A stretch of 64,000 bases of DNA, from IMG/VR virus record IMGVR_UViG_3300022745_000021, positions 1 to 64,000 of that record. One strand, given 5' to 3'. The position numbers were made by a program, and so were the translations under genes. The DNA comes from a virus. The notes beneath the pieces were generated by a model. It was given only the letters and a program-made list of their open reading frames with translations. It was not told where the DNA came from and did not search any database. Positions 3,601 to 62,944 of the stretch are shown here, in pieces (positions within the stretch are counted from its first letter, which is position 1; every line of letters begins with the position of its first letter).

Positions 3601-6600
3601 CGTTGCCGAAGTCCCCGCCGAAGAAGCCGAGGTGCTGGCGCTGCTTGCACTCGACGATGCCGCCGACGCGCTGTTGCCCGCGCTGGTTGCCGAGTTGGCA
3701 GCGTTCGTCGCACTGGTGCTGGCAGACGACGCGGACCCGGCAGCGTTGCTGGCGTAGGTAGCAGCCTGACCGGCACTGGTGCTGGCGTTGCCCGCATAGG
3801 TTGCGGCATTCGTCGCTGACGTGCTGGCGTTGCTCGCCTGCGTCGAAGCGGTTGAGGCCGATCCGGCAGCGTTCGAGGCATAGGTCGCTGCCGAGTTGGC
3901 CGAGCCGGATGCGTTGCTCGCCGAAGTCGCGGCGCTGCCTGCGCTCGACGACGCCTGCCCCGCGCTGGTGGCTGCGTTGTTGGCCGAGGTGGTCGCGCTC
4001 GATGCCTGCTGACCTGCGGTGGTTGCCGACGCCGCAGCGCTCGATGCCGAGGACGCGGCTGCCGTCGCCGAACCGGCAGCGTTGTAGCTCTCGGTAATGT
4101 CGGTCAGTTGCAGGCGGCGAACGTGGTAGACCGCGTCGGAATAGCTCGACCCGGCGTTGTCCCAATTGATGTGCGCGCGCGGACGCGCCCAGAACAGGTT
4201 GCCATCGGCGACCCAGTCGAGGTCGAACGTGGTCCACGTCGCGAACGGCATGGCGGTGAGGAGGTTGACCGCCGACGTCACGCCTTGCCAAGCGCCCGAA
4301 CCATCCTGCCGGTAGAGGCCAAAATGGGCAAACGACGGACGGCCGTTGGTCGCCTCGACGACGCGGGCGATGTCGATCGACACGCGGTAGCGCCGCCCCG
4401 GCGTGGGGACGAACGTACCGCGCGAGGCTACCAGCGCATACTGGTTGGCACGCGAGGCAAACACCGGATAGCTGGCGGAGCCGAACCAGTCGTCGCCCCA
4501 GATATTGCCGGGCGTGTAGTTCCCCTCGTCGCTAATCCAGAACTGGTGCTCATTGGGGGTGAAGCCCGAGGGAAGCAGCTGCGCGGCGGCGGTGGCTGAG
4601 ACTGACGAACTGGTCGCGGCGCTATTGGCGCTGCCCGCCGCGTTGGTCGCCGAGGTCGCGGCGCTGGAAGCCGACGACGCTGCATTGCCCGCGTAGGTGT
4701 AGGCATTACCTGCGTAGGTGAAGGCATTACCCGCACTGCTGGCGGCGTTACCTGCATAGGTCGAGGCGGTGTTGGCGCTGCCCGAGGCGTTGGACGCCGA
4801 GGTCGCGGCGCTCGATGCGCTGCTGGCGGCTTGGCCTGCGCTGGTCGAGGCGTTGTTGGCCTGCGTCGTCGCGGTCGAAGCCGACTGCCCGGCGGCGGTC
4901 TGCGATGCGGATGCGCTGGAGGCCGAGGTGGCAGCCGCCGTCGCCGACAGCCCCGCCGCATATTCGGACGTGATGTCGGTCACGACCGGCGCCGACAGGT
5001 ACATGTTACCGGCGTTGAAGTTCTGCGCTGCGCCGCCCCAGCCCGAGAGGCCAAGCACCTGCACGATCGGGAACCAGTACGGCGGCCAGCCGCTCGCAGG
5101 GATGGTGACGTCGAGGCCGATCGGCACCCAAGTGTTGGCGGGGATATGGAACGACCCGCCGTTGCAACCGGGTGCAACTGCGACGTTATCCCCGCTGACC
5201 CCGACAGAAGTGCCGTCACTCCAGACGCCCGTGTTCGTGCCACCAAGCCAGATATTGACATAGGCGTTGGTGGCATCACCGATGGCCCAAGCCGTGTAGC
5301 GGTAGCGCCGCCCGGGCTGCGTCACGATGCCCTTGGCCGGGTAGATCGAGAGTACGTTGTGACTGGTATCAGTGCGAGCGAGGTAGGGCGATTTCCAGCC
5401 CCAGTCGGCATGCGCGGGTCCATCGATCGAGACGTTGTTCTCGACGATCCACGCCGCGCGTTGATCCGGGGACAGCCCGCCGGGCAGCATCGCTTGTAGA
5501 ACCGAGGTGGCCCCGTCCTTGGCGCTCGCTGCCGTCGTCGCGCTGGAGGCGGCGCTGTTGGCGCTGCCCGAAGCATTGCTGGCGCTGGTCGCTGCCTGCG
5601 ACGCCGACGTGCTCGCATTGCCCGCCGAGGTGTTCGCGGACGTCGCCGACGCAGCGGCAGCGCTGGCGCTGTTGCCCGCGTTGGTGGCCGAGGTCGATGC
5701 TGACGAGGCACTGCCCGAGGCGGCGCTGGCGCTGTTCGCGGCGTTGGTGGCCGAGGTCGCGGCAGCCCCAGCCTGCGTGCTCGCCGTGCTCGCCGAGCCG
5801 GCGGCGCCGGTCGCGCTGGTGCTGGCGTTGTTGGCATAGGTTTGCGCCTGCCCGGCAAAGGTCAGCGCGTTCGACGCCTGCATGTAGGCGTTGCTCGCCT
5901 GCGTCGCGGCGTCGTTCGCCGACGTGCTGGCCGAGGTTGCGCTGTTCGACGCGCTGGTGGCGCTGTTGCCGGCGGCGGTCTGCGATGCGCCTGCGTTCGA
6001 CGCGCTGGTGGCAGCGGCGCTCGCATAACCCGACGCGGCTTGGCTCTCGGTGACATCCTCCAGTCGGAAATCGCTGATGCGGATTTCCATACTGGGCTGA
6101 CCCCAATCGCCATCAATGATTACGAACGGGATGATCGCCTGCACGCCCGCCGGGATCGTGGTGACCGCGTCGATCAGCTGGTAGCCATAGGTGCCCCCAC
6201 CGCCTGCGGCGTTCTGCCACCAGAAACTCTGGGTGCCATCCGCCATGAGCATCGAATAACCAAGGCCGCCGGGGAACGCACCGAACTGCACCGACACGTG
6301 TCCGTAGACGTGCAGCTTGCGCCCGCCCCAGTTGCCGTAAATCCAGTCACCCTCGAAGGCGTCGCGCGTGTTCGCAATGAACAGCGCCTTGCCGCCCGAC
6401 ACGGGGGCGAGAGGCTGGCCGTAGTAGGCGGGGTTGATGACCGAGCACGGCCCGCCGGTCGGGTTGTACCACTGGCCGACCGAGCCGTCCGAGAAGGTGC
6501 CCTTGCGCACGATGTTGCGCGAGGCAGCCGAGCTTTGTGCCTGCGCTGCCAGCGTGGCGCTGTTCGAGGCCGAGGAGGCGCTTCCTGCTGCATTGCTGGC

Positions 6601-9600
6601 GCTGCTCGAAGCCTGCGACGCAGACGTGTTGGCGTTCGATGCCGACGTACCCGCTTGGCCCGCGCTGGTGGCCGCATTAGTTGCCTGCGTCAGCGCCGAG
6701 CTTGCCGAGTTTCCCGCATTGGTCGCGCTGATCGCAGCGTTCGACGCGCTGGTGGCAGCCGCCGTCGCCGACAGCCCCGCCGCATATTCGGACGTGATGT
6801 CCTCAAACTTGATGCCCGTCAGATAGACATGGTTGCCCACCGGACCCGTATAGTTGGCAGCGTTGTAGATATGGAACATCGGACGGACGTACGCGGGCCA
6901 ACCGGCGGGGACGGTGAAGTCGATGCCGACTTTGGTCCACGTGTTGGCGGTCAGCCCGCCCGAGACGATCGCGGCGGGCGGGCTGCTGACGGTCGCGTTC
7001 ACGTTCTGCGAGGTGCCGTCGTCCCAGTTGGATGTGCTGGTGCCGCCCACCCACATTCCGGCGGCGCAGGCGCTGTTCCACGCATAGGCCCAACCCGTAG
7101 CCCGGTGACGCCGTCCCTGAACGGCAGGGATGCCGAGGCGCGGGAATACGTACATATCACTGACAGCCGGATCGCCGTGGGCCAGATAAGGCGCGGGCCA
7201 ACCGTCGTTGACTTGGGCCGGCCCAATTACCTCTGTCGAACGATCGATCCGGTAGGCGTCGCGCCCGTAGGGGTCCAAGTTGGGCGGGAACAGTGCCGCC
7301 GCCGTGTCACGAGCGCTGTTCAGGTAGCCCGCCGTGGTCGAGGAGAACGACGACGCGCTCGACGCACTGCCCGCTGCGTTGGTGGCCGAGGTCGCGGCCT
7401 GCCCTGCGCTGACCGACGCCGCGCCCGCGCTCGATGCGGCGTTGGTCGCCGATCCTGCCGCTGCCGTCGCCGAGTTGCCAGCATTGGTGGCGCTGGTCGA
7501 AGCCGAGGAGGCGCTACCGGCGGCAGCGCTGGCCGAGTTGCCCGAGTTGGTCGCCGACGTGGCGGCAGCCCCGGCGCTGGTCGAGGCCGAGGATGCGCTA
7601 CCGGCGGCATTGGTCTCGGAGGTGTGCGCGTTGCTGGCGTAGGTCGCCGCGTCATTGCGGAACGACAGCGCGTTGAACGCCTGATTGTAGGCGTCGGTGA
7701 CCGACTGCGCAGCGGCGCTCTGGGATGCCTGCGCCGCGTCGCGCGCGGACTGGGCGGCACCCTGTGCGCTTTGCGCGGCATCGCGCGCGGTCTGGGCACC
7801 GGTCTGGTAGCCGAGCGCGGCATCGCGGGCCGACTGCGCGGCGGTCTGCGCGCTCTGGGCGTTGGTCTTGGCGGTCTCGGCGGCGGTCTGCGCGGTGGAC
7901 GCGGCGCTCGATGCCGCCTGCGCCTGATCCTTCGCCGTGCTGGCGGCCGAGGCATAGGTGTTGGCGACGCTGGCGCTGGACGCCGCTGCTGCGGCGCTGG
8001 AAGCTGCCGCCGCCGCCTGCTGCGCCGCGCTCTGGGTCGAGCCGTACGTCGCGATCAGGCTGGCGATGTCGCTCTGCGCCTGCGAAATCTGTCCGGTGAC
8101 ATCGGTCGGCCCGGCGCTGATCTCGGCGCTGGGGGTGCCGTCGCCGAACACGTCGAAGGGCACCAGCTTGAGGTAGTGCGTCGCCTGTGCGAGCTTGGGG
8201 ATCGTCACCCGCGAACCGGTGCCGGTGTAGCGCAGATTGGCATTGGTCAGCGCGACCGGCGAGGTGGTGTCGGCGTAGACGCGGTATCCGGCATAGTCGG
8301 GGTCGGCCGGATCGGCGACGGTGACCATGATCCCGTCTAGCGTGCCGGTTGCAGCCGGTTGCACCGCCCACGTCGGCGCCGGGTTGGTGAACGTCGTCGC
8401 GGCCATCGCCGAGAGGTTGCCGTTGACGTCGAGCATCTGCACCCCGATGCGCGGACCCCGGATCGGGCCGCCGTCGGCGTTCTGCATGTCGTAGGTGTAG
8501 ACGTAGCTCGCATCGGTGACGATGGCGGTGCGGCGCACGCTCACCCCGTTGGCGGCGTAGACCGTGACCTTGAAGCCCGCGAAGAACTGGTCCTTGAAGG
8601 CTTGGCCCACCTGCCCGTCGGGGGCGCCGATCGCGCGGGCATCCCAGCGCACGGCCAGATCAGGTCCCGAGAAGGTGACCATGCCTTCGGGCGTGGTCGG
8701 GTTGGTGACCATCGCGCGTGCGTTGACGTTGGTCGCGTCCTGCACGTTGTAGAGGCCCGAGAGCACCGCCGAGGGCACGCCCATGGTATTGACCGCGAAG
8801 ACGCGGCACTCGTAGGCACCGTTGATCGGGCTGTCGATGATCGCTTCGGTCGAACCGGTCTGGGGCAGCGAGGCCCAGTTGCCGCTGTCAACCCGGTAGG
8901 AGAACATGTAGCCCGAGAGGATCGTGGTGTCCGACTTGGTCCACGTGACGATCAGGCTGTTGGCGACGCTCGCGCCCGAGGTGCGCGTCTCGACCCGGAA
9001 CTGCATGTCGGTCGGCGGCGCGCAGTACGACGGGTTGGGCAGCTTCTGGTAGGTGCCGGCGGGGTCTTCGATGAAGTTGGCGCTGTTGTCGGCGATGTCG
9101 TACTTCTCGGCGCGGTATTCGAGCGCCAGCACCTCGAACTGCCCTTTGGTGGCGTCCGCGATCGACAGCACGCGGAACGGGCGCGGCTCGACGCTGCCGA
9201 TCTCGGACAGCGCGAAGATCGCCCCGACAATCGGCATGTCGCCGCTCGGCAGCGGGGTCGCCAGCGTGACGATGTCGGTGCTGCCCGGCGCGTTGGTGAC
9301 GGCGGCCGAGAACAGCTGGCCGGTCTTGGTCATCACCGAAAGCTCGTACTCCTCGCCCGCCGCGAAGGGGAACGGGGTGTCCATGCGCACGCTGGAGGTC
9401 GCCACGTCGAGAATGCGCCCGCCCATGCGCGGCCCGGCGTAGGCGGGGTCCACGATCTCGATGACTTCGCCCGGGACCAAGTCAGCCGCCTCGTAGCCCG
9501 AGGTGAACTTGACGGTCTCGGTCTCAAGGATTTCGGTGGCGAGCAGCCAGCGCCCGAACCGCCGGGCCTGCCCGCGCGAGGTGCAGCCGATGGCCGCGAC

Positions 9601-10995
9601 TTCGGTGGGCAGCATGCCGTATCGCTTGATACCTTCCTTGTCGGGGATCACCTCGTAGTCGATGGTGTACCCCAGCTGCGGGTTGTTCCACGAGACGATG
9701 GCGACGGTGTGACGGGCCTTCTTGGAGGTGCCCGCGTACTCGAAGTCGCCGTTGATGACGTTGGCGGGCGCGAAAATCTTGACGGTGCCCTGCGGGCGGT
9801 CCTGCGCCAGCGAGAACAGCCCCGCCGACCAATAGGTCATGCCCCGGAACGCCGAGGCGAGGCCGGTGAGCACGTTGTAGACGGTCTCGGCCTTGTTGAT
9901 GACGCCGTTGAACGCGAAGCGCGGCTCGACGCCGCCGTAGCCGTCCGGGACGCCTACAAATGTTCCCGTCGTCTCATTAATCGCGTCGCAGTAGCGCGCG
10001 ATCTGGTAGAGAGACCACTTGTCCACGTAGACCGGGTCGATGCCGGCGCCGTAGCGGGTGTTGGTGGCGATGTCGTACATCACCCACGCCGGGTTGTTGG
10101 TCCACGCCCACTTGAAGGTGCCGTCCCACAGGCCGGTATAGGAGCGCGCGATCGGGTCGTAGTTGCTCGGCACGCGGATGATGAGGCCATAGACCTCGTA
10201 GGCGCGCGCCGGGATCGTGGTCCCGAAATACTGCGCGTCCACGCCCACGCCGATCAGCGCGGTGAACGGGTAGGTGAACTTGTGGTCGTAGACCAGCTGC
10301 ATGCGGCTCCAGTTGGTCGCATTGGTCAGCTTGACGGTGTTGCTGTCCGCCGTCTGGCGCACGATGGTGACATCCCACGGCCCTTGGCCGGGCAGGTCGA
10401 TGCGGTAGTCCTCCTCGTAGGGCGACACGCACTTGCCCGAGATCGTCGAGACGGCGGCGAGCACCTGCGGATCGGTGCCAGCGTCGGCGCGGCTCTTGAC
10501 GTAGATATTGTGCACCACGGTCGAGCCGGCGATGTGCTGGCCGTTGTCCTGCGCCTCGTTGAGCGCGGGGACGTTGAGCGTGACGATCACCGCGTCGGCG
10601 TCGAGATCGCTGATGCGGCGGGTGTTGCTGATGCCGGCTTTCAGTTCAAGCTGACTGAAATCTGCAACGGGTTGCATCGCCGATGGGAAACCCGCGATGT
10701 AGTCCTGATCGGCAAGCCCGGGCGTGAACACCCATTGCACGCCGTTGAAGTTGGCGGTGCCGTCGGCCGAACGGATCGGGGTGTTGTCGAGGTAGATCGA
10801 CTTGTCGCCATTGACCAGCCCCCGGATTTCGCCTTCGCTGATCGCGTCGAGCACGTAGCCGGTCGCGGTCGAGCGCAGCGAATTGGGGTCCTCGACGAAC
10901 TTGCCGCCCTTGCCGCCACCGGCACCCGTAACCGGCCAGCGCCGCAGCGTCTGGGCGGCCGACTTCATCTGGGAGGGCTTGACATGTTCGGTCAT
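646..10995 (-). CDS. Central tail fibre / host specificity protein (lambda J-like), 3449 aa
   Basis: N-terminal GAGGGKGG...DAISEGEIRGL, WDGTFKWAWTNNPAW, GCTSRGQARRFGRW typical of gpJ; Ala/Ser-rich stalks alternate with aromatic-rich beta modules. Start moved to the ATG at 10995 because the longer ORF overlaps gene I. Confidence 0.93.
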   Translation of the reverse strand: MTEHVKPSQMKSAAQTLRRWPVTGAGGGKGGKFVEDPNSLRSTATGYVLDAISEGEIRGLVNGDKSIYLDNTPIRSADGTANFNGVQWVFTPGLADQDYIAGFPSAMQPVADFSQLELKAGISNTRRISDLDADAVIVTLNVPALNEAQDNGQHIAGSTVVHNIYVKSRADAGTDPQVLAAVSTISGKCVSPYEEDYRIDLPGQGPWDVTIVRQTADSNTVKLTNATNWSRMQLVYDHKFTYPFTALIGVGVDAQYFGTTIPARAYEVYGLIIRVPSNYDPIARSYTGLWDGTFKWAWTNNPAWVMYDIATNTRYGAGIDPVYVDKWSLYQIARYCDAINETTGTFVGVPDGYGGVEPRFAFNGVINKAETVYNVLTGLASAFRGMTYWSAGLFSLAQDRPQGTVKIFAPANVINGDFEYAGTSKKARHTVAIVSWNNPQLGYTIDYEVIPDKEGIKRYGMLPTEVAAIGCTSRGQARRFGRWLLATEILETETVKFTSGYEAADLVPGEVIEIVDPAYAGPRMGGRILDVATSSVRMDTPFPFAAGEEYELSVMTKTGQLFSAAVTNAPGSTDIVTLATPLPSGDMPIVGAIFALSEIGSVEPRPFRVLSIADATKGQFEVLALEYRAEKYDIADNSANFIEDPAGTYQKLPNPSYCAPPTDMQFRVETRTSGASVANSLIVTWTKSDTTILSGYMFSYRVDSGNWASLPQTGSTEAIIDSPINGAYECRVFAVNTMGVPSAVLSGLYNVQDATNVNARAMVTNPTTPEGMVTFSGPDLAVRWDARAIGAPDGQVGQAFKDQFFAGFKVTVYAANGVSVRRTAIVTDASYVYTYDMQNADGGPIRGPRIGVQMLDVNGNLSAMAATTFTNPAPTWAVQPAATGTLDGIMVTVADPADPDYAGYRVYADTTSPVALTNANLRYTGTGSRVTIPKLAQATHYLKLVPFDVFGDGTPSAEISAGPTDVTGQISQAQSDIASLIATYGSTQSAAQQAAAAASSAAAAASSASVANTYASAASTAKDQAQAASSAASTAQTAAETAKTNAQSAQTAAQSARDAALGYQTGAQTARDAAQSAQGAAQSARDAAQASQSAAAQSVTDAYNQAFNALSFRNDAATYASNAHTSETNAAGSASSASTSAGAAATSATNSGNSASAAAGSASSASTSATNAGNSATAAAGSATNAASSAGAASVSAGQAATSATNAAGSASSASSFSSTTAGYLNSARDTAAALFPPNLDPYGRDAYRIDRSTEVIGPAQVNDGWPAPYLAHGDPAVSDMYVFPRLGIPAVQGRRHRATGWAYAWNSACAAGMWVGGTSTSNWDDGTSQNVNATVSSPPAAIVSGGLTANTWTKVGIDFTVPAGWPAYVRPMFHIYNAANYTGPVGNHVYLTGIKFEDITSEYAAGLSATAAATSASNAAISATNAGNSASSALTQATNAATSAGQAGTSASNANTSASQASSSASNAAGSASSASNSATLAAQAQSSAASRNIVRKGTFSDGSVGQWYNPTGGPCSVINPAYYGQPLAPVSGGKALFIANTRDAFEGDWIYGNWGGRKLHVYGHVSVQFGAFPGGLGYSMLMADGTQSFWWQNAAGGGGTYGYQLIDAVTTIPAGVQAIIPFVIIDGDWGQPSMEIRISDFRLEDVTESQAASGYASAAATSASNAGASQTAAGNSATSASNSATSASTSANDAATQASNAYMQASNALTFAGQAQTYANNASTSATGAAGSASTASTQAGAAATSATNAANSASAASGSASSASTSATNAGNSASAAAASATSANTSAGNASTSASQAATSASNASGSANSAASSATTAASAKDGATSVLQAMLPGGLSPDQRAAWIVENNVSIDGPAHADWGWKSPYLARTDTSHNVLSIYPAKGIVTQPGRRYRYTAWAIGDATNAYVNIWLGGTNTGVWSDGTSVGVSGDNVAVAPGCNGGSFHIPANTWVPIGLDVTIPASGWPPYWFPIVQVLGLSGWGGAAQNFNAGNMYLSAPVVTDITSEYAAGLSATAAATSASSASASQTAAGQSASTATTQANNASTSAGQAASSASSAATSASNASGSANTASTYAGNAASSAGNAFTYAGNAYTYAGNAASSASSAATSATNAAGSANSAATSSSVSATAAAQLLPSGFTPNEHQFWISDEGNYTPGNIWGDDWFGSASYPVFASRANQYALVASRGTFVPTPGRRYRVSIDIARVVEATNGRPSFAHFGLYRQDGSGAWQGVTSAVNLLTAMPFATWTTFDLDWVADGNLFWARPRAHINWDNAGSSYSDAVYHVRRLQLTDITESYNAAGSATAAASSASSAAASATTAGQQASSATTSANNAATSAGQASSSAGSAATSASNASGSANSAATYASNAAGSASTASTQASNASTSATNAATYAGNASTSAGQAATYASNAAGSASSASTSATNAANSATSAGNSASAASSSASSASTSASSAGTSATAASNSANSASGSASAASTSASNAAGSASSASGSASTASTYASNAATYAGNANTSATNAASSASAASASESSAATSATLSAAFTGGGNLLNNTDFPNGLTAGWAFGKSNGSMVFDNVTVNGAGSDWHPVAENVLSMRQDGRLGTGTDIGEWGSAAVSATAGEYYQAYAYCAAHRAPIAVVLVFLDDAGNWTGYGYAGDAVSTGGKNPANWTQVGVKAIQAPAGTTRMFLALRKIDTNSGQSDSWAWFWRPYIGKARSGQTLFNNYSPGGSRYQMENVQAAISYEADVRTNAIASVATSVSTINASIAVKPNILKNPSATNGTTGWNQDNPSYPVYVSLGTYGEGNIFVSASGNNTTGSGLWQDVDYQSTAAISLQAEIYAGGVTGSAQVRAYVQWLDSGHNHLGYSGQAVVNAGNSGWNLVKIENQTPPSGVRYARVHLDIWGGSTWSNTSAAWKRVKLEQGASCTLYSDDLTASQFSASITMQSSSIATLQSQASTFTQRLSAGSPNLLPNGGFESGLAKWTNVTNWNVQVAGSGAWTNYWGAYVSTWIDGTQVLVSDRITATAGQVHTLSYDSAIWGSGTHGYCDVIYYDASNNVLLDGGQVDSSGHDFSNTFEARQSYAHTETAPTGTAYLVVRCVAFNANGGSCNFRQIKLEAGSVATDYTAEASAAYQAGVIADHTGKLQSYVTLSTSAGAATASVKLMAVDGSGNPTSSIGFEAQEVVVTNAAGTNKKVAMKIANGNATFDGDIIIGGRILFTNGLALRMAVAPYIMQVGDGDSISYPNAGYLPIPTFQSGGLAPIGTTENYNLYLDNQTASGATVRLKVNVPGAPTNYNLTTDAAGGTGQPNRVVSKGSNPDAVGNQYRVQGTWSTTSTAYYDSYGLYYADWSVAIYIYAKVSGSWVLAGSSYLSGTNSYFTPGTKTITGAFDEVVTAPSGVTDIGATDAGGGSVTSITSVSWTAPGTASSSRSATPGGEKCQLTLTY
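4927..6801. repeat. 51-bp exact direct repeat pair (4927-4977 and 6751-6801) inside the J-like gene
   Basis: ggtggcagccgccgtcgccgacagccccgccgcatattcggacgtgatgtc occurs twice, 1824 bp (608 codons) apart. Confidence 0.9.
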
Positions 10996-11774: not shown

Positions 11775-12657
11775 ATGGGGTCTCCGGTTGACGGTCCAGT
11801 GAGGTGTGGCGCAGCCAAACTTCGATGCGGGGAAGCCAGCGGGAAAGCGGCGCTTCCTCTGACACCCTATTAAGTAGGTGGTGCACCATCATCTGTCCAC
11901 CCGTGTAGACAACACCATGGTTCAATCTGTGCGGAGACATCACCCGCACCAGCCCGACATCGCCCTTTTGCAGCACCAGCGGCGAGCGTTCGTCGCCCGG
12001 ATCGGTGTGGATTTCATGGGGGGCCAGCCGGCGGAAGCCTTCGCGCCGGTAGTAGTCCATGAACAGGTCGGGGGCGGTGCGCGGGTCTTCGCCTTCCGCG
12101 CCGAGCCACCATTCGTCGTCGCGCGGCTCGCTGGTGATCGCGATGCCGAACTGCTGGCGGTAGTAGCGCACGATGGCCTCGACGCAGTCGGCGACGCCCG
12201 GGCGGAACGGCACGCCGGTGACCGGGGCATCGGCCTCGATCGGGAAGCTGAACTCGTCGATCACGCGCGGCACGGGGTCGCTGTGCGAGAGCGCCGGATC
12301 ACCATCGCTGCAACTGGTTGCAACCGGCGGCACCAGCACCACGATCACCCACGGCACGTTCGTCGCGCGCTGGGAGATCATGTCGGCCCGCGACGGCGCG
12401 CGCTGCCCCTTGGTGTGCGAGTGGACGATGGCGACAAGGTTGCCCGCCTCCAGCGCCGCCTCGTACGCGCCGGGGTCAAGCTCGAAGCTGTCTTCGCGCC
12501 GGTCCTCGGGGGCGACGTTCTCGCAGCGCTGGTAGGCGAGCACACCGTCGTCCTGCCGGGTGACCATGCCGCAACACTCCTCGGGGAAGGTGTCGCGGGC
12601 GTGGGCGTAAATCTGGCCGCGCAGGTACGGCGGCACGCGGAAGGCGTGATCGTTCAT
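11707..12657 (-). CDS. Tail tip protein K-like (JAB/MPN + NlpC/P60)
   Basis: PEECCG...VHSHT...PSRAD (JAB) and GVADC...NHGVVY...HH (NlpC/P60); ATGA overlap with the L stop at 12654-12657. Confidence 0.9.
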   Translation of the reverse strand: MNDHAFRVPPYLRGQIYAHARDTFPEECCGMVTRQDDGVLAYQRCENVAPEDRREDSFELDPGAYEAALEAGNLVAIVHSHTKGQRAPSRADMISQRATNVPWVIVVLVPPVATSCSDGDPALSHSDPVPRVIDEFSFPIEADAPVTGVPFRPGVADCVEAIVRYYRQQFGIAITSEPRDDEWWLGAEGEDPRTAPDLFMDYYRREGFRRLAPHEIHTDPGDERSPLVLQKGDVGLVRVMSPHRLNHGVVYTGGQMMVHHLLNRVSEEAPLSRWLPRIEVWLRHTSLDRQPETPCEENDPPLRDAGAGDGVQADRA

Positions 12658-13805: not shown

Positions 13806-16800
13806 TCAGCGCTTGGACAGGATGCCGCCCGAGCGCAATTCGTTCGCCAGTTGGCGCTTGACCAGTCCTTCAAGCGCCTTGACGGTCTGCTGGCTGATCT
13901 CGGCACCGGCTGCCTTGGGATCGTGCACGTCGCCCTGCATGGTGATGCTCACCTGCGGCGCGAAGTGGATGACCTGACCGTCGCCGCCCATGCCGCCCTT
14001 GGGCAGGAGCGCCTTCACGCCGAAGTTGCCGTCGGCCATGCGCATGGTCGGGAAGATCGCTTCGCCCGCCTTGGCGATCACCGGTACTTCGCCCGCGTTG
14101 ACCCCGGGGATGCCGCCGACGTGGAACCGGCGCGCACCGGCGAACACCGACGGGCTGACCACGCTGGTGGATGGCGCGTTGCCGCCGGTGATGCCACCGG
14201 TGTGGAACACGCCGAGACCGAAGCCCAGCCCGGGGAAAATGCTCTTGAGGCCCGAGAGCAGCGTCTGCTGGAGCGCCAGCCGGGCGAGGTCGGCAATGAT
14301 CGAGTTGATGAACCCCGAGAAGTTGAACTTGCCGGTGGTGATGAACTCGGCAAGGCCGTCCGACGCGCCCTTGAACGCGTTCTTCCACACGTCGGCGCCG
14401 GTCAGCGCCGTGTTCTCCAGTTCGATGCCGAACTGGATCAGCCCCTTGCGTGCCTGCCCCATGAAGCTGTTGTTGGCTTCGAGCAGCGAGCGGGCGCGGG
14501 CCTGCGCCGCGTTGTAAATGTCCTGATTGATACCAAGGCTGGCGAGGACCTGTGCGAACGCCGCGCCGTCCTGCGTTCGCATGGCTTCGAGCGCGGCAAG
14601 CTCGCGCTGGAGCGCCGCGTTCTTCGAGAGCTTGTCGTTGAAGCCCGCGTAGGCGCTGACCAGCCCGGCAACCAGCGACGCGCCCTTGGTAACGTCCCAC
14701 GCCTTGGCCGCGTCAGTACCGGCCCGGGCGATGTCGGTGTCCACGCCGTGCGCGCGGCCCGCGTCGGTGACCTTGCCATCCTTGTAGAAGCCGGCCTTCT
14801 GCGCTTCGGCGATGGCCTTGTTCTTGGCCTCCATGATCGCAAGGCTGCGCTCGTCGAGCGACAGGCCCGAGAGCTTGGCGCGGTAGTCTCGGTCGGCCGC
14901 GTCGTGGGCAAGGTCGTACTGCTTGGCGAGCGCGTTGCCGATCTTGTCGGTGACCAGCGCGACCAGCTTCGCCATGCGCACCTTGTCGTCGTCGAGGTTG
15001 ACGATCTTGTTGTTCACCGAGAGGATTTCTTCGAGCGCCGACTTCTGCTTCTTGATCTCGGCGTCGAGCGTGGACATACCAGCCTCGTCGGTGTTGTCAG
15101 CGAGCTTCGACCAGAAGTCGCTTTCCTTTTCCGCGTCGGTCTTCGCGCCGCTCGACCCGCGACCCGTCTTCGGGTTGCGGTTGGCCTTGATCGCGTCGGC
15201 GGCTTCCTTGATGCGCCCGCGCGCGTGCTTGTCGGCGTTGGACGCGATATGGTCCATCACCCAGTTGCCGGCCTTGTCGTACTCGCCCCACGACTTCTTG
15301 AACGCGTCGCCCATGTGCTGGCCCATGCGCCCGGCAGCGCCAGCGAAGCGGTTTTCGAGCACCGGGATGTCGTGCTCGCCGACGCGCTGGAACACCTGCC
15401 CGAACCCGGCCGAAGCGAGGATGCCGTTGGCCTTGTCGAGGAACCAGTTCACCCCGTTGATCGCCATCTGGATCAGCTTGTTGATCGCGCCGATCGCGAG
15501 GTTGACCGCCGAGAAGAAAATGTCGCCCAGCGCCGACGGGAAGTCATTCCACGCGGCGATGACCGCGCGGATCGTGCCGGCGAACGCGGTGTAGATCAGC
15601 TTCGCGATCAGGTTGCAGAACTGGCCGATGCTAGACACGAGGTCCTTGAACATCGTCACGATCAGATCGACCGTCGCCTTGATCCACGGCACGTCGTAGG
15701 CGTTGTGGATCGCTTCCTTGACCGTGTCCCAGATGCCGACGATCGTATCGACGTAGGTCACCTGCAAGTCGTTGTGCTTCTTGATCTCGCCGTTCGCGCC
15801 GACGGTCTCGTCCTTGAGCTTGCGCATTTCCTTGGACGTCAGGCCCAGCGAGTTGGCGTAGTTGGTCAGGCTGGTCTTCTCGGCCTCGGTGTTCAGTTCC
15901 TTGTGCACGAGGAACAGCCCGGCCATACCGGCGATGACGACGGGGAGCACGGTTTCGAGCAGCCCCAGCTGCGTGAGCAGGATCGAGGTCGAGCCGGCCA
16001 TGCGGGAGAAGTCGCCGCGCCCCAGTTCGCGGGCGAGCACGACGCTCTCGCGGATCGCGCCCGAACCCAAGTGGAACTTGGCGGCGGTCTTCTCGGCGGC
16101 GATGCCGACCTTCTCGACGTCGCGTGCGGTCTCGCCGTACTGCTGGACGAACGAGGCGGCATCGGCGGCGGATTTGCCGGCGGTGGACCCCCAATGCATC
16201 ACCGCGTCGCGCGCGGCGTCGTACGCGCCGAGCAGCGAGTTCTTGATCCGACCCCCGGAGGCGACCGCGACCTTTTCGGCGTCAGCGGTGGCCTTGGCGA
16301 CGGCAGCCGACGCGACAGCGGCTTCGGCGCCGATGGCGTTGCCCGCCGCGTTGACGATGCGCGTGGTGGGGTTGATGTTCTGCTGCATGGCGGGCTTCGA
16401 GCCGGGACCGGCGCCTGCCCCGACGGCCGGGGTGAGCGGGCCGGTGGCCCCCATGGCGGCGTTGCGCTCCTCCTGCGCGTCCACCGAGCGCGCGACCATG
16501 GCGCTGATCCGGGCCTGCGCCTGCGCTTCGCTTTCCAGCTGGCGGGTCATCGCCCGGCTTGCCTGCGTCGCCCGGTCCCGCACGGCGGCCATGCGTTCGG
16601 TGGTGGTGATGCCGTTGGCCTGCGCCACGTCGGTCGCGCGCACGGCCTGCGCTGCCTGCGACGCGGCGGCCTGCATGTCACGCGACGCGCGGGCGACGTT
16701 GGACAGTTCGCGGGCGGTGTTGGCCGCATCGCGTGCAACCCGCTGCAAATCGGCCGACAGCGACTGGAGCGCCGCCCGCGCGTCGTTGCGCATGCGAATG

Positions 16801-17829: not shown

Positions 17830-17916
17830 GTCGGGTCTCGCCAGTGGAGGGGAGCGCCCCGGTGCAACTGGTTGCAACCTTCCGGGGCGCTGGATGGGCG
17901 GCGGTGCCGGGGCGGA

Positions 17917-19644: not shown

Positions 19645-20343
19645 TCACCACTGGATTTTGTCGATTGTGGCGGCGATGGCGGCCATCACCGATGCTTCGT
19701 ACTGGGTCGCGTACAGGTCCCAGACGTTGGGGATGCCTTTGAGGCGGCCCGGGATGCGCACGCTGGTTTTCAGCAGGTACAGCGGCTTGGGTTTGCCGTT
19801 CGGACCTTTGATGCAGATGAGGAGGTTGCCGCGCTTCGAGCGGATCACGAACGTGCCCTGCCAAGCGCGCGAGGACGACTTGAGCGGCACGCCCCGGCCA
19901 TCGCAGGCAGCAGGCAGCGGGATCGTCAGGTAGCGCGACCGCTTGGCGCGGATCACCCCGCCGTCGAGGTGGATGCCGAACACGCCCACGTTCACTTGCG
20001 CGGAAATGCCGTCGATGGTCGGCGCGGGCGTGACCTTGGCGGACTGCTTGAAGCGCTCCATCAACCCGCCCGAGCGGCGCTGGAGGCGGTCGGTATCGTT
20101 CACTAGCTGGCCGTTCCACGGCAGCTTCCCGTGGACTTGCTCGACGTAGCGCACCACCTTGTTGAGGTGTTCGTTTGCAGCGCGTTGCACGCCGACGGCC
20201 GATGCGTCGATCGCCTTGGTCAGCTGGTCGGCGATGTACGCCCCCCAGTTGTCGTCGGGCGCGAACGTCGAGCCGCCGATGGTGACGCTCATAACGTCGG
20301 CAGGGGAAATCCCCGCGCTGGTCGCCGTGAGCGTGTCGGCCAT
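19645..20343 (-). CDS. Neck / tail completion protein (putative)
   Basis: RRSG-x-L and GGVIRAK...YLTIP...LY-x-LK-x-SV-x-IP motifs seen in phage morphogenesis proteins; TGATG coupling. Confidence 0.65.
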   Translation of the reverse strand: MADTLTATSAGISPADVMSVTIGGSTFAPDDNWGAYIADQLTKAIDASAVGVQRAANEHLNKVVRYVEQVHGKLPWNGQLVNDTDRLQRRSGGLMERFKQSAKVTPAPTIDGISAQVNVGVFGIHLDGGVIRAKRSRYLTIPLPAACDGRGVPLKSSSRAWQGTFVIRSKRGNLLICIKGPNGKPKPLYLLKTSVRIPGRLKGIPNVWDLYATQYEASVMAAIAATIDKIQW

Positions 20344-21401: not shown

Positions 21402-21454
21402 CGGGATACCCTTTCAAAGTGCAACCCGCTGCAACGCGGGCTGGGGATTGCCGG

Positions 21455-25153: not shown

Positions 25154-25266
25154 GATGTCGGTCCCTTCCACGCTCGCGGTACGCGATTGCTTGCCACACA
25201 TGTAGGAAGTACGCCGCGTGTCACAAGAGGGGAGCTTGCAACGAGTTGCAAACTACCCCCCACACA

Positions 25267-28924: not shown

Positions 28925-29026
28925 GGTCTCCTCGCTTGTGGTCGGGTCCGCTGCCACGGCCCCTTGCTGATCTTTCATACCACAATCGGGGTACGTGTCA
29001 ACGAAATCCCGCTGCAACTGGTTGCA
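28925..29026 (-). promoter_or_regulatory. Promoter-leader cassette
   Basis: TGCAACTGGTTGCA upstream; TTGACA-16-TATGAA; hairpin CCG-TGGCAG-CGG; GAGGAGACC RBS. Confidence 0.75.
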
Positions 29027-29842: not shown

Positions 29843-30149
29843 GTATTACCTCCATCTGGCCGTCCCCGACGCGGCAATATTGTGCTGGTTTGCCCGAACT
29901 CACCCGCGCTGCGCCGCAACATGCATCCAGTGGTGTTGCGCTACCGCATGGCGGAACATTTGTAAATAGCGTTCGTGTTACCCAGACATTGCCTGTCGGA
30001 AGATATGGCCTCGGTTTTTTCCTACGGGTGTAGCTGCAACGGGTTGCAACTTACTTGTAGAACCCTACACGTGTTGGAAAGTTCCGTAGAAAATAGGGCA
30101 GGGGGGCAGTCACCCGCCCCCCGCATACAAATACCTGTTAACGAATGAT

Positions 30150-30413: not shown

Positions 30414-30536
30414 TGCTATCGTCTCCGGGCCGCGATAGCGCGTTTCATGCGCCGAGCGCGCGCCGTCGTCAAGATTACGCGTGACGGGTGCATGCGTTCC
30501 GGGTAGGTTTGACGTTGAAACGGAACAGGAGCGTTG

Positions 30537-38428: not shown

Positions 38429-38719
38429 TCACGTTTCTACGTCAAGCGCAGGCTCCGGGGGAAGGCCGTGTTCATACCAGTCCGCGTAGGCCAGATGCCG
38501 GCCTTCTGGGGGAAGCCCTTCCCGCTTGCAACCGGCTGCAAACCCGGCGCAGGGTCGCACTTCGCCCGGCTCGGCGCTGTGGCAGCCCCAGTTGAGGCCG
38601 CGCTCGCGCTTCCAGCCCATGATCTCGAACACCGAGGGCACGCAGCCGAGGTTGATCGCGTTCTCCGCGCGGTCCGAGTGCGAGAACGGGTAGGTAGGGC
38701 ACATTTTCGCGGCGCTCAC
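38429..38719 (-). CDS. Small Cys-rich protein related to the CxxCP...CH...CAG family
   Basis: CPTYPF...WGCHS...PCAGF; GTGA coupling. Confidence 0.65.
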   Translation of the reverse strand: MSAAKMCPTYPFSHSDRAENAINLGCVPSVFEIMGWKRERGLNWGCHSAEPGEVRPCAGFAAGCKREGLPPEGRHLAYADWYEHGLPPEPALDVET

Positions 38720-39778: not shown

Positions 39779-39884
39779 GGTCGGTCCCCTGTCTGTGTGG
39801 GTTTCGCGTCAGCCCCCCATATAGGAAGGGGGCCGAGCCGATCAACAGCCCGGCCCCCTCGCCCGTTGCAACTGGTTGCAACCG

Positions 39885-41837: not shown

Positions 41838-42397
<560 letters not shown>

Positions 42398-42524
42398 TGT
42401 GTCTGGTCTCCTCTAGCTACCTACATGTGTTCTACATCGCGCCGCCTACACGCGCAACATAATTTTACGTCAAACGGTTGCACGGATATTTGCAACTCGT
42501 TGCACCGCGATTATCTCTCGGGGC

Positions 42525-44611: not shown

Positions 44612-44643
44612 GGGGCTTCTCCTCGTTGGTTACTTCCCAAGTG

Positions 44644-45967: not shown

Positions 45968-46428
45968 CGGCCGTCCTCCAGCAGGAAGCAGGCACCGTGC
46001 GGGATGCCGTAGGGGTAGCTGTCGAGCAGGACCATTATGTTCTTGTCGGTGCTGCCATACAGGTAGATTTCCCACGCGCGCTTGGGGTCGTCCCAGCGGA
46101 TGTAGTGCAGGCCCTTCTCGATGGCATCCACCTGAGACACCTGCTTGAGCACACTGCGGCGTTGCAACCAGTTGCACTCGCCCTTGAGCGCGGTCACCTC
46201 GGCGTCGAGCTTGTGCCACAGGTACGACATCACGAGGAAGCCGCCGCCGGTCACCATGAACGCCGTCGCCAGCGGCAGCGCGGCAGGATGCAGGTCCCCC
46301 CGGGCGACGCCCATCATGCCGAACACGCCCATGCCGATGGTGATCGCCGCGCAGAGGTTGGCGACCTCCCGCCAGAAGCGGGACACGCGCGGGGGATGGT
46401 CGGTGGGGGACGATGTCGCCGATGCCAT
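45964..46428 (-). CDS. Membrane protein (2 TM)
   Basis: Two hydrophobic segments; first gene after the TTGACA-16-TATGAA cassette at 46437-46498. Confidence 0.75.
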   Translation of the reverse strand: MASATSSPTDHPPRVSRFWREVANLCAAITIGMGVFGMMGVARGDLHPAALPLATAFMVTGGGFLVMSYLWHKLDAEVTALKGECNWLQRRSVLKQVSQVDAIEKGLHYIRWDDPKRAWEIYLYGSTDKNIMVLLDSYPYGIPHGACFLLEDGR

Positions 46429-48679: not shown

Positions 48680-49281
48680 GCGTGTTCTCCCTCGTTGGTT
48701 GCAACTGGTTGCACCGGGACACGTACCCGGATGCGGGGCTTGGGGAGCACGTCGGCTTCCTCGGCTTCCTGCGCCAGCGACATGCGTTGAAGCTCCCCGC
48801 GCCGCTCGTTGATGATCCGTTGCAGGGACGCCAGCCCTTGCGCGTCGCTTTCCCAGATGATTTCCTCGACGCTGATCCGCTCGATGACGTTGCGGGCCTT
48901 GGTGGTCTTCGGGGCGCGTTCGACCAGCGGGTAGGCGCTGACGGGTTCAGGCTCGGCTTCCTCGGCGGCCAGCGCCAGCATGTGCGCCTTGGCCTTCTCC
49001 TGTTCGGCCACCGCGTCGATCACGATCGGCTCGCCACCGCCCACGGGGTACAGCAGCGTCATCGTGCCGGTCATGTCCGGCTGGCTCGCCATGTCCACGC
49101 CGAACAGCTTGACGTCGGCCGCCGGGGGCTTGCCCGGGGCGTGCTGGTTGAGCCATGCGATCAGGCTCGGCTTGTCGGTGGGGACCTCGATCTTCTCCCA
49201 GCCCTTCATGCCGTCGTTGGCGGCCTTAGCGTCGGCCTCGGTGCCGGTCCACACGTGTCCCTTGGAGCGATAGAGCCGCAT
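48676..49281 (-). CDS. Hypothetical protein
   Basis: GGAGGA RBS; W.GT.ADAK...EVPTDK..L..WLN N-terminal motif. Confidence 0.75.
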   Translation of the reverse strand: MRLYRSKGHVWTGTEADAKAANDGMKGWEKIEVPTDKPSLIAWLNQHAPGKPPAADVKLFGVDMASQPDMTGTMTLLYPVGGGEPIVIDAVAEQEKAKAHMLALAAEEAEPEPVSAYPLVERAPKTTKARNVIERISVEEIIWESDAQGLASLQRIINERRGELQRMSLAQEAEEADVLPKPRIRVRVPVQPVATNEGEHA

Positions 49282-49386: not shown

Positions 49387-49505
49387 GGTCTCCTCGTTCT
49401 TGTAGCGTAGGGGCTGGCCTGCCTGCCGCCCTACACGTGTTGCTTAGACCAACGGGGCCTACACGTCAAGCGTTTTGAGGTGCAACTGGGTTGCAACTGG
49501 TTGCA
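49387..49505 (-). promoter_or_regulatory. Promoter-leader cassette with tandem TGCAAC palindromes
   Basis: TTGACG-17-TAAGCA; GTAGGG-C-GGC-AGGCAG-GCC-AGC-CCCTAC hairpin; GAGGAGACC. Confidence 0.75.
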
Positions 49506-51088: not shown

Positions 51089-51182
51089 GGTGCGGGTATC
51101 TCCGTTGTCTGTCCCTGACCATACCACGCACGCGGTATTACGCAAGCGAAAAAGCGCGCCCTAGTTGCAACTGGTTGCAAAC

Positions 51183-51946: not shown

Positions 51947-52043
51947 GGTCTCCTCGGTAATCGGTCTGGCCTGCCTGCCGTTCCGATGCCCCCTTGTACC
52001 ACGCTGGCGGTGCACGTCAACAGAAAAGTGCAACCGGGTTGCA
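51947..52043 (-). promoter_or_regulatory. Promoter-leader cassette
   Basis: TGCAACCCGGTTGCA; TTGACG-16-TACAAG; ATCGG..GGC-AGGCAG-GCC..CCGAT; GAGGAGACC. Confidence 0.8.
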
Positions 52044-52225: not shown

Positions 52226-52256
52226 GGGGGTCACTCCCGTTGCAACTGGTTGCAGC

Positions 52257-52691: not shown

Positions 52692-52859
52692 CCGAAAAAA
52701 GCACGGGCGCACCAATTATTTTCCCGGGGTCCGAAATTCAGGCGCGCGACGGCATGTCAGTTTTTCGCACCACACTGGCGGTATGATGCAGCCACGTCCA
52801 CGGTATGGGTGGGCGGTATGGGTCACGGTATGGGCGTAGTTGCAACCGGGTTGCAATAC

Positions 52860-53439: not shown

Positions 53440-53955
53440 TCAGTCAAGGTCGATGATCCTCTTGGTGCGCTTGCGGGTGTTCTCCCGCGCGTTGCGTTCG
53501 GTCTCGATCTCCGCTTTGGTCTCTCCCCGGCGCCGTTCGTAGGCGAGCAGCATCGTGCGCAAGTGCAGGTCTGCCTTCGGCCCCAGCGTCACGTGCACGT
53601 CCAGCGTCATCATGTCGCGCTCGGTTGCGATCAGTCCCTGCGCCTCTGCGTTGCGGATGGCCCACGCGCTGTCGCGGTCACGATCGGTCATACCAAACGC
53701 CACCACCACCTTGCCGTCGAGGTAGGCGTCCAGTAGGAGGTCGGCGATGTCTATCCTGTCGCGTGATCTCCCCGGTCGGCGTTCCTCGCGCAGTTGCTTG
53801 GCGGCTGCCAGCAGGCGGTGGCCTAGCTCGTTCTCCTCGCGCTGCATTGCAGCCAGTTGCAACATTTGGTCATCGGACAAGCTCGTGGAGGGCACGCCCA
53901 ACGCGGCCAACCGGTCCAGTTCTGCGCGTAGGCGGCTGCGGCCTTCGGGCGACAT
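53440..53955 (-). CDS. Hypothetical protein
   Basis: TGATG coupling at 53953-53957. Confidence 0.7.
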   Translation of the reverse strand: MSPEGRSRLRAELDRLAALGVPSTSLSDDQMLQLAAMQREENELGHRLLAAAKQLREERRPGRSRDRIDIADLLLDAYLDGKVVVAFGMTDRDRDSAWAIRNAEAQGLIATERDMMTLDVHVTLGPKADLHLRTMLLAYERRRGETKAEIETERNARENTRKRTKRIIDLD

Positions 53956-54773: not shown

Positions 54774-54878
54774 GGTCTCCTCGGTCCCGGTCGGCCTGCC
54801 TGCCTGCCCGGTGAAATCACCTTAGAACATGTGGGTTGCAACGCAAGCGAAATCTGCCGGCGTTGCAACCCGGTTGCA
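54774..54878 (-). promoter_or_regulatory. Promoter-leader cassette
   Basis: TGCAAC-N3-GTTGCA; TTGCGT-16-TAAGGT; CCGG..GGC-AGGCAG-GCC..CCGG; GAGGAGACC. Confidence 0.7.
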
Positions 54879-55610: not shown

Positions 55611-55715
55611 GGTCTCCTCGGGTGGTCGGGCCTGCCTGCCCGGCCGATGTCTCTACGTACCATGCGGGCGGTACATGTCAAGCGTGATCGACGAGAAAAG
55701 TGCAACCGGGTTGCA
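55611..55715 (-). promoter_or_regulatory. Promoter-leader cassette
   Basis: TGCAAC-N3-GTTGCA; TTGACA-16-TACGTA; CGGGC-AGGCAG-GCCCG; GAGGAGACC. Confidence 0.8.
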
Positions 55716-57993: not shown

Positions 57994-58208
57994 GGGGTGT
58001 TCCCCAGCCGGGCCACCCGGCTCGTCCCTGCAACGCGTTGCACCCGGGTGCGCGGGCGTTCGGTCAGGAACACCGCGTCGCACTTGCGCACGTCCCCCGG
58101 GCCGGGGCCGAACCGGACCGTCGTCCAGCCGCCCTTGACCCGGGGGGAGACCACGACGCCATCGCCGTACTGGCTGTGCGTCACGCGCTTTCCATAGGAG
58201 AGCTTCAC
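57990..58208 (-). CDS. Small SH3-like beta-barrel protein
   Basis: G.RVTH..YG.GVVV...TVRF pattern; GGAGG RBS. Confidence 0.6.
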   Translation of the reverse strand: MKLSYGKRVTHSQYGDGVVVSPRVKGGWTTVRFGPGPGDVRKCDAVFLTERPRTRVQRVAGTSRVARLGNTP

Positions 58209-59485: not shown

Positions 59486-59571
59486 GGTCTCCTCGGGCGG
59501 CCTGCCTGCCGCCGATGTCTCTACATACCATGCAGGGGGTACGTGTCAAGCGTCAAGTGCAGCCGGTTGCA
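59486..59571 (-). promoter_or_regulatory. Promoter-leader cassette
   Basis: TGCAACCGGCTGCA; TTGACA-16-TATGTA; GGCGGC-AGGCAG-GCCGCC; GAGGAGACC. Confidence 0.8.
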
Positions 59572-60857: not shown

Positions 60858-60954
60858 GTCTCCTCGGTGGTCGGTCCGGCCTGCCTGCCGTTCCGATGTC
60901 TCTTAGTACCACGCTGGCGGTACGTTGCAAGCGAAAAAGTGCAACCGGGTTGCA
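60858..60954 (-). promoter_or_regulatory. Promoter-leader cassette
   Basis: TGCAAC-N3-GTTGCA; TTGCAA-16-TACTAA; TCGG..GGC-AGGCAG-GCC..CCGA; GAGGAGAC. Confidence 0.8.
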
Positions 60955-62819: not shown

Positions 62820-62944
62820 GTGGGTGTCTCCTCGTCTCTGCCAAGAACACATGTAGCCTACACATTAGCGGGCGTCAAGCGGCTTGGTTCCAGCCCGTGC
62901 TACGATTTTCCCGGCTCGCGCTTTACCGTTGCAACTGGTTGCAC

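Follow-up and report, generated by a model that had tools for sequence, protein, structure and literature searches.

Why should a phage genome carry dozens of near-identical copies of one short palindrome, between its genes as well as inside them? The question is raised by the first 64,000 bases (positions 1-64000, hereafter the window) of IMG/VR record IMGVR_UViG_3300022745_000021, a phage genome of 104,959 bp that is 96% complete, has a G+C content of 66% and bears almost all of its genes on the minus strand. An initial annotation of the window had listed about 36 copies of the palindrome TGCAAC-N2/3-GTTGCA and had taken them for binding sites of a dimeric protein that acts on the whole genome. 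We found the array to be a real feature of the window, and we consider it on balance probable that the palindromes are docking sites, arrayed along double-stranded DNA, for a phage-encoded protein that is symmetric, probably dimeric and active genome-wide. The symmetric double-stranded-DNA factor of the initial annotation is thereby retained, whereas its general link to promoters and two of the three helix-turn-helix (HTH) genes that it had named as possible binders are not.

In the window we counted 18 exact copies of TGCAAC-N2-GTTGCA and seven of the corresponding N3 form, each of which had a mean of 0.00 in 100 dinucleotide-preserving shuffles. With up to one mismatch allowed, the counts were 30 for the N2 form and seven for the N3 form, compared with 0.11 and 0.06 expected, respectively, for a total of 37 copies, 25 of them perfect and 12 with one mismatch (Table 1). 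The shuffle values of approximately zero bore out the earlier estimate of a chance expectation far below one, and every coordinate listed in the initial annotation proved to be a genuine copy. The list had omitted one copy, at 20176, and the mismatch label given to the copy at 5163 was correct but applies equally to ten further listed copies (8350, 16734, 21420, 24081, 32535, 32896, 38527, 42080, 53848 and 59558), all of which have G at position 5 of one half-site (TGCAGC or GCTGCA). The whole genome contains 62 copies, 38 of them perfect (28 N2 and 10 N3, all TGCAAC), and 23 of the 24 one-mismatch copies deviate at position 5 of one half-site, 19 of them by an A-to-G change. Half-sites in other spacings or relative orientations were not enriched in this genome beyond by-products of tandem overlap. 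Sequence information is limited to 14 to 16 bp with dyad symmetry, and the flanks are random. The repeat is not a mobile element, a reading that we rejected because the flanks carry no information, nor is it a longer RNA gene.

Distribution among phages and bacteria

Neither megablast nor tblastn with TerL against the phage collection revealed close relatives of the IMG/VR phage; a portal peptide scan of viral contigs and a first metagenome scan gave no match, and an 18-mer scan of viral contigs gave single chance matches only. The portal protein retrieved distant cultured relatives with identities of 33-52%, and the closest relatives by portal (P0002 and P0003) were 63-65% identical. In an unbiased count of spaced palindromes, TGCAA-N4-TTGCA ranked first in each of nine phages. 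Apart from the IMG/VR phage, these were the Rhizobium phages RHph_I4 (45 N2 and 7 N1 copies, TGCAAC), vB_RleS_L338C (47 N2 and 12 N1, TGCAAC; hereafter L338C) and RHph_TM16 (17 copies; hereafter TM16), the Aeromonas phage HJ05 (16, TGCAAC), the Rhodobacter phages RcTiptonus (21, TGCAAT..ATTGCA) and RcZahn (9, or 28 for TGCA-N6-TGCA), the Agrobacterium phage JP1 (33, TGCAAA..TTTGCA) and the Pseudomonas phage SM1 (30, TGCAA[AG]CG[CT]TTGCA).

Thirteen or more other genomes or contigs of phages carry versions of the motif, which was also found in about a dozen metagenome relatives. The same core was the top spaced palindrome of a phage-like contig from Paracoccus, and a related form, GCAAACGTTTGC, was that of a contig from a Rickettsiales metagenome-assembled genome. 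Stenotrophomonas phage DLP_5 contained 38 copies of TGCA-N6-TGCA, compared with 0 for the control. The signal was weaker in Vibrio phages, with 9 such copies versus 1 for the control in SIO-2 and only an over-represented half-site 10-mer (14-16 copies) kept in Ares1. Bacillus phage B83 has no array, nor do most prophage loci of more remote relationship, of which many come from Firmicutes. A few portal relatives from metagenomes (among them L164 and L167) carry other 14-bp palindromes, for example GAACC-N2-GGTTC and TGATA-N4-TATCA, with five copies each in 12-15 kb, which suggests that the specificity of the array has switched in some lineages. Our search of the literature for the motif and the related phages returned no description of the motif.

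In the closely related phages RHph_I4 and L338C, positions are conserved for all nine coding sites compared and at 21 of 22 junctions between genes. Between the IMG/VR phage and RHph_I4, one of five coding sites was kept, whereas four of five syntenic junctions were occupied in both. The density of sites persists even as the individual sites turn over.

The array is confined to phage DNA. In the 5.4-Mb assembly of Paracoccus sp. MKU1, all 48 exact copies lay on a single 96-kb phage-like contig and none was present in the other ~5.3 Mb. Among 400 other Alphaproteobacteria genomes, 329 had no copy and the remainder had one to six each. The Paracoccus contig (contig206, 96,368 bp; L064) is a whole phage-like contig of this group, with a portal identity of 46%. 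A relative from Rhizobium bangladeshense among the portal matches is labeled as a plasmid, and a carrier or plasmid-like state is possible. One alphaproteobacterial chromosome holds three copies of the motif in a stretch of 8 kb (G375:C1:3455586-3463076), which possibly mark a related prophage remnant.

Host nucleoid proteins such as IHF, which is conserved across Alpha- and Gammaproteobacteria and has the consensus core WATCAANNNNTTR, might also be served by an array of optimized sites. TGCAA-N4-TTGCA contains CAANNNNTTG, and it presents a CAA-N4-TTG core on both strands, with (T)TG at the WAT positions. The invariant outer TG and CA bases exceed what IHF requires, however, and the bacterial chromosomes searched are essentially without copies. 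Position 6 of the half-site, moreover, is C in Rhizobium phages and A in the Agrobacterium phage JP1, although their hosts are closely related, and it is identical in Rhizobium and Aeromonas phages. We consider sites for a host nucleoid protein quite improbable. Variation of position 6 between lineages is as expected if a protein and its site co-evolve, and the presence of copies on phage DNA only, together with the position-6 pattern across hosts, favors a phage-encoded reader rather than a host regulon.

Spacing, coding copies and placement

The sites are evenly spaced. The coefficient of variation of the gaps between them was 0.51-0.57, compared with ~0.94 in simulations that preserved the mixture of coding and intergenic positions (P < 0.001 in the IMG/VR phage, RHph_I4, L338C, JP1 and SM1), and the largest gap between sites was 4.4-4.9 kb in three genomes of 105-110 kb. 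Between 31 and 73% of sites are intergenic, while non-coding DNA makes up 9-21% of each genome; in the IMG/VR phage, 35 copies are intergenic or at an edge and 22 are coding. The seven N3 copies in the window are without exception intergenic, and every coding copy there is 14 bp long, as the initial annotation had stated.

Copies within genes are far more frequent than codon usage predicts. The coding sequences of the whole genome contain 11 exact copies, compared with an expectation of 0.10 (maximum, 2) in 300 shuffles of synonymous codons within genes, and 22 copies of the relaxed form, compared with 1.16. The corresponding values for coding sequences of the window were 6 versus 0.09 for the exact form and 13 versus 0.97 for the relaxed form. 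A codon-preserving shuffle, which the initial annotation had named as a comparison that could refute its claim, thus does not explain the frequency of the motif, the excess of exact copies (11 vs 0.10) being about 100-fold. Coding copies were also correctly described as being read in different frames: all three are used (15, 4 and 3 copies), the commonest arrangement being xTG-CAA-CNN-GTT-GCA, and the codons CAA, GTT and GCA of this frame account for 17%, 5% and 8% of their synonymous sets in the genome. Because of these rare codons, the excess over codon shuffles, the conservation in relatives and the essential absence of the motif from bacterial chromosomes, we agree with the earlier view that selection acts on the DNA. 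Three internal copies each are present in the 10-kb tail gene of the IMG/VR phage and in the tape-measure gene of RHph_I4. The tail gene (646-10995, minus strand) is a single open reading frame (ORF) for 3449 amino acids with domains of the tip-attachment protein J in its NH2-terminal part, and its product is unusually large for a tail protein.

We propose that selection would keep a site about every 2 kb, with neighbors never more than ~4.5 kb apart. Sites would be placed in non-coding spacers where these are present (after stop codons, in gaps between a terminator and a promoter, or before ribosome-binding sites) and, where no spacer is available, would be written into coding sequence by means of rare codons.

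Some of the sites lie close to promoters. A TTG[AC]C box is located 8-12 nt downstream of 11 of 57 sites in the IMG/VR phage, 19 of 53 in RHph_I4 and 19 of 59 in L338C, approximately five times the expectation, and sites next to such -35-like boxes in these three phages are often directly behind a terminator. RHph_I4 (L012, L018-L020) and L338C (L021-L026) have 24 early-type promoters each, which are highly conserved, conform to TTG(A/C)CAAAGGAT(C/T)..GTTAGATT and are preceded by a TTAG element; 14 of the 24 in RHph_I4 and 12 of the 24 in L338C carry a site at the fixed offset of 8-12 nt. These arrangements, together with the many sites between a terminator and the next promoter, would be consistent with operators of a global transcription regulator, similar to stoperators or KorB operators, that represses or activates promoters or blocks read-through at gene boundaries. 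The test for -35-like boxes showed, however, that promoter proximity is absent in HJ05, RcTiptonus, JP1, TM16, RcZahn and SM1, in which sites directly follow stop codons or closely precede ribosome-binding sites. Some 50% of the early promoters are without a site, 27-69% of sites lie within genes, including the three in the 10-kb tail gene, and operators would not be expected to be evenly spaced. The ~60 proteins scanned, which constitute part of the proteome, yielded neither a repressor nor an integrase. Since promoter proximity is limited to one lineage, promoter control is unlikely as the conserved function, and we regard a global regulator as a doubtful explanation of the array. The position just upstream of -35 boxes described in the initial annotation thus holds for ~20-35% of sites in the lineage of the IMG/VR phage, RHph_I4 and L338C and does not extend to the six other array phages. 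Secondary effects on adjoining promoters may occur in this lineage.

A second recurrent motif, CCTACA(C/T)GTGT / ACACGTGTAGG, was observed near gene starts in the IMG/VR phage and RHph_I4, and in the window it is seen near the sites at 25237, 30035, 31128 and 49481. It may represent a second promoter class or the site of another protein.

Outside the window, a triple site is present at genome positions 100240-100273. An adjoining 1-kb gap that appeared to be non-coding and origin-like was rejected as such, given that it holds spanin-like genes. These genes (genome 100300-101140; L042:16300-17140) encode a membrane protein and, behind it, a lipoprotein whose LTAC signal resembles a lipobox, and downstream of them are a promoter-terminator pair without an ORF and then the triple palindrome.

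Table 1 Palindrome copies in the window and the opposite-strand gene discussed in the text.
Position	Strand	Feature	Context
5163..5176		N2, 1 mismatch	within 3449-aa tail J-like gene (646-10995, minus)
8350..8363		N2, 1 mismatch (TGCAGC)	within tail J-like gene
10663..10676		N2 perfect	within tail J-like gene
12309..12322		N2 perfect	region without confident gene call
16734..16747		N2, 1 mismatch (GCTGCA)	within tape-measure gene (13806-16826)
17863..17876		N2 perfect	intergenic, embedded in longer GC-rich inverted repeat
20176..20189		N2, 1 mismatch	coding (19645-20343)
21420..21433		N2, 1 mismatch	intergenic; next start codon 18 nt on
24081..24094		N2, 1 mismatch	coding (23271-24566)
25237..25250		N2 perfect	intergenic; portal gene stop 16 nt earlier
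27217..27230		N2 perfect	coding; stop of 27193-28908 24 nt further
29013..29026		N2 perfect	intergenic; 3 nt past stop, 11 nt upstream of TTGACA -35-like box (coding strand)
30035..30048		N2 perfect	intergenic
30534..30956	+	gene, 140 aa, coiled coil, HTH-like C-terminus	only convincing opposite-strand gene
31128..31141		N2 perfect	intergenic
32535..32548		N2, 1 mismatch	coding (32216-32644)
32896..32909		N2, 1 mismatch	intergenic
35827..35841		N3 perfect	intergenic; in 12-bp stem (-20.9 kcal/mol), then U-rich run and TTGACC box
36461..36474		N2 perfect	coding; stop of 36443-36787 18 nt further
38527..38540		N2, 1 mismatch	intergenic
39867..39880		N2 perfect	intergenic; stop codon 4 nt earlier
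42080..42093		N2, 1 mismatch	coding (41837-42397)
42491..42504		N2 perfect	intergenic; 17 nt upstream of TTGACG box
46163..46176		N2 perfect	coding (45964-46386)
48700..48713		N2 perfect	coding; stop of 48676-49281 24 nt further
49481..49505		tandem pair with one common TGCA core: N3 49481-49495, N2 49492-49505	intergenic; 11 nt upstream of TTGACG box
51166..51179		N2 perfect	intergenic; stop codon 3 nt earlier
52029..52043		N3 perfect	intergenic; 2 nt past stop, 8 nt upstream of TTGACG box
52241..52254		N2 perfect	intergenic; directly after terminator-like hairpin, just ahead of next ribosome-binding site
52841..52855		N3 perfect	intergenic; -35-like box not found nearby
53848..53861		N2, 1 mismatch	coding (53440-53910)
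54864..54878		N3 perfect	intergenic; 17 nt upstream of TTGCGT box
55701..55715		N3 perfect	intergenic; 19 nt upstream of TTGACA box
58029..58042		N2 perfect	coding (57990-58208)
59558..59571		N2, 1 mismatch	intergenic; 8 nt upstream of TTGACA box
60940..60954		N3 perfect	intergenic; 9 nt upstream of TTGCAA box
62930..62943		N2 perfect	intergenic; stop codon 1 nt earlier

Possible readers of the sites

An inverted repeat might be recognized not as duplex DNA but as a hairpin in RNA or single-stranded DNA that serves in termination, processing or priming or as a stem-loop recognized by a protein. A variable loop of N1 to N3 and a strand bias of the central bases would fit such a signal, as would the copy at 35827, the only one in the window found in a strong stem (Table 1). 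A loop of 2 nt is, however, impossible, which leaves a stem of 5 bp, and the RNA stems of typical copies are weak, with energies of -5 to -9 kcal/mol and z-scores of -1.2 to -2.6. Among the 53 copies of TGCA-N6-TGCA in the IMG/VR phage, 28 have the consensus AC..GT and 19 a single A-to-G variant at position 5, whereas the compensatory form GC..GC was found 0 times, and this absence of compensatory double variants argues against hairpins. Position 6 is usually mismatched between the halves in SM1 and TM16, scanning the window for Rfam families (and likewise for tRNAs) yielded nothing, and copies occur in long genes, where an RNA signal is not expected. A hairpin signal thus seems very remote. 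The variant pattern, the position-6 mismatches and the weak folding favor the reading of a duplex by two protein subunits, each of which would recognize one half-site TGCAA(C), with the two TGCA cores 10 bp apart on the same face of the helix.

Which protein might do so? Fourteen gene families are common to all nine phages. Those for replication and recombination comprise DNA polymerase A, primase, helicase, RecA and two Holliday-junction resolvases; those for virion and packaging comprise the large terminase, portal, protease and major capsid protein; and the remaining families are an AAA ATPase, the ParB_N-like proteins and two without known function. Of these two, one is in our view the best candidate binder, a 447-amino acid core protein encoded at genome positions 78211-79554, outside the window, for which the structure model predicts an SH3/Tudor/KOW-like NH2-terminal domain, a disordered Ala/Lys-rich linker and a helical COOH-terminal domain (C-domain). 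The C-domain was modeled alone (pLDDT of 80), and among its top matches in VIA-align are Spo0J and the Caulobacter ParB-parS complex, each with a Z score of 8.0. KorB (two entries, one of them bound to operator DNA) scored 6.5 and was followed by SopB, VirB and P1 ParB, and only 13 of 48,161 chains reached a Z score of 5 or more. This resemblance to ParB and KorB is weak and suggestive only. The family is present in all nine phages and in the array-bearing Paracoccus and Rickettsiales contigs, whereas a search of three portal relatives lacking the array did not detect it. Its members include the products of the ORFs at 80076-81431 in RHph_I4 and at 44202-45551 in SM1 and gp066 of DLP_5. Homologs were also detected by tblastn in Stenotrophomonas and Vibrio phages, and the motif counts given above for DLP_5, SIO-2 and Ares1 provide an out-of-sample check on phages with such a homolog. 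PDB sequence searches with the candidate proteins returned nothing useful. The other core protein of unknown function, of 348 amino acids, looks like a single-strand-binding protein of the gp32 type, which we note as a lead only.

Several points weigh against docking sites for such a protein. The spacing of the half-sites varies (N1, N2 and N3), and variable spacing is usually poorly tolerated by rigid dimers. The central bases of intergenic copies show a strand bias (CCAG 11:2 in the IMG/VR phage, CTTG 8:1 in RHph_I4 and ACAT 8:0 in JP1), which is not predicted by a purely symmetric site. With regard to the candidate, the alpha-domain of Raf1 scores about the same as the ParB matches to the C-domain, a Z score of 8 falls in a range for which VIA-align warns of a common helical arrangement, Foldseek gave nothing significant for the C-domain, and sequence profiles gave no ParB match for the protein. 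Shared ancestry confounds the association of the protein with the array, and array-less controls are few. Finally, no purpose of genome-wide coverage is evident in an apparently lytic phage.

If the docking-site interpretation is nonetheless correct, the task of the protein would require that it cover the entire genome, and not that it control individual promoters. It might nucleate a spreading, bridging or coating complex that organizes, marks or protects phage DNA. More specifically, and only tentatively, the array might belong to a split ParB-like system in widespread siphoviruses of Proteobacteria with genomes of 80-110 kb. A stand-alone protein of the ParB/KorB type would load at ~30-60 evenly spaced parS-like palindromes, possibly together with separate ParB_N proteins, and would coat or bridge the entire genome, so that the array would act as a self-mark organizing or shielding the DNA during lytic growth or in a carrier state. 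In the 447-amino acid candidate, the SH3/Tudor-like domain occupies the place at which ParB-type proteins have a fused ParB_N (CTP-binding) domain, and the ParB_N-like proteins are encoded by separate genes and have a GHxR motif. As binders in their own right the ParB_N-like proteins, although present in all nine phages, were demoted because they have no evident HTH and because their genes also occur in 36 portal-anchored loci without the array.

In an operon outside the window (genome 68305-72097; L041), two or three ParB_N-like proteins are encoded together with a PAPS-reductase-like protein and a small ORF of unknown nature. This cluster, or the fusions of ParB_N with a methyltransferase in HJ05 and SM1, might instead supply a DNA-modifying or nicking activity that leaves regular marks or nicks at the palindromes, whose invariant core TGCA is a 4-bp palindrome of the kind recognized by methyltransferases. 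A target for such an activity would by itself leave the ~1000-fold enrichment and the even spacing unexplained, however, and nicks on opposite strands at a palindrome would cleave the phage genome. ParB_N-like genes are present in the 36 array-less loci, and the methyltransferase fusions were found only in HJ05 and SM1 among the ParB_N homologs scanned. We therefore consider a modification or nicking target unlikely.

Three HTH genes had been put forward in the initial annotation as possible binders. Those at 29030 and 39885 gave no match to a DNA-binding family, and the third, at 30534-30956 on the plus strand (Table 1), has weak HTH-like matches; in PHROG it weakly matches a D5-like regulator and, within a ParB profile, the HTH part. 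An overlapping ORF on the minus strand (30414-31142) has the base composition of non-coding DNA. We rejected the plus-strand gene as a conserved binder, given that it has no detectable homolog in the relatives and that no equivalent opposite-strand gene is present in the other phages; it remains a weak, lineage-specific candidate regulator.

Relation to known systems

The closest described analogue of the array is the 17-bp dyad repeat TGTTCGGNNNCCGAACA of Cluster O mycobacteriophages, of which 34 near-invariant copies with a variable center occur in intergenic and coding DNA (Cresawn et al. 2015, PMC4351075). That repeat is absent from the host genome, is conserved among related phages and is of unknown function, and its authors inferred a dimeric binding protein and considered a transcriptional role unlikely (PMC4351075). 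The IMG/VR phage similarly carries at least 30 near-invariant palindromes genome-wide, which lie between and inside genes, have a variable center, are essentially absent from the bacterial chromosomes searched and are common to its relatives. The geometry differs (7-N3-7 in Cluster O versus 5/6-N2-5/6 here), as does the sequence. Whereas the Cluster O repeat is known from one tight cluster of phages with actinobacterial hosts, the core described here spans phages of at least seven host genera, the evenness of its spacing has statistical support and we propose a candidate binder.

The KorB operators (OB) of the IncP-1 plasmid RK2 and the sites of Noc provide the nearest mechanistic models. In the KorB-OB, Noc and ParB systems, dispersed palindromes of 13-16 bp are bound by a dimeric HTH protein of the ParB family, with some sites just upstream of -35 boxes and others distant from promoters; for Noc, tens of sites are spread over a chromosome. 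The present site is likewise palindromic, with 14-16 bp of information, and the predicted C-domain of the candidate binder weakly resembles the DNA-binding domains of KorB and Spo0J (Z scores of 6.5-8.0). Unlike KorB and Noc, the candidate has no fused ParB_N domain, proteins consisting only of ParB_N being encoded separately. The site density is also different, at ~60 sites on 105 kb compared with 12 on RK2, and the genome is that of an apparently lytic phage.

Stoperators, to which the initial annotation had compared the palindromes, are a looser parallel. The stoperators of Cluster A mycobacteriophages such as L5 and Bxb1 are asymmetric, orientation-dependent 13-mers to which a single phage protein acting genome-wide, the immunity repressor of a temperate phage, binds. 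The comparison holds in that both arrays consist of tens of short conserved sites genome-wide, many of them in short intergenic gaps, and fails with respect to symmetry, orientation and apparent lifestyle: the sites described here are palindromic, only their central 2 bp show a strand bias, between one-third and two-thirds of them are coding, and no repressor or integrase was seen in the scan of ~60 proteins. Chi and DNA uptake sequences are asymmetric words, and the machines that read them during translocation or uptake do so in a single orientation. The present motif shares with them a huge over-representation, a fairly even distribution and an occurrence also in genes, and it could similarly distinguish own from foreign DNA, but it is a palindrome and is carried by a virus.

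Genome-wide arrays of palindromes in phages have thus been described, in Cluster O mycobacteriophages, and never explained. New here is that one core motif is present in phages of Rhizobium, Agrobacterium, Rhodobacter, Paracoccus, Aeromonas, Pseudomonas and Stenotrophomonas and, less strongly, in those of Vibrio, at a regular density that is kept despite its cost to coding sequence. Assemblies can moreover be screened for this phage group simply by means of the motif, as illustrated by the whole phage contig that it revealed in the Paracoccus assembly. With cultured relatives and a named candidate protein at hand, the role of the array has become a directly testable question, and the array indicates that phage chromosome biology has a conserved layer that has gone unstudied.

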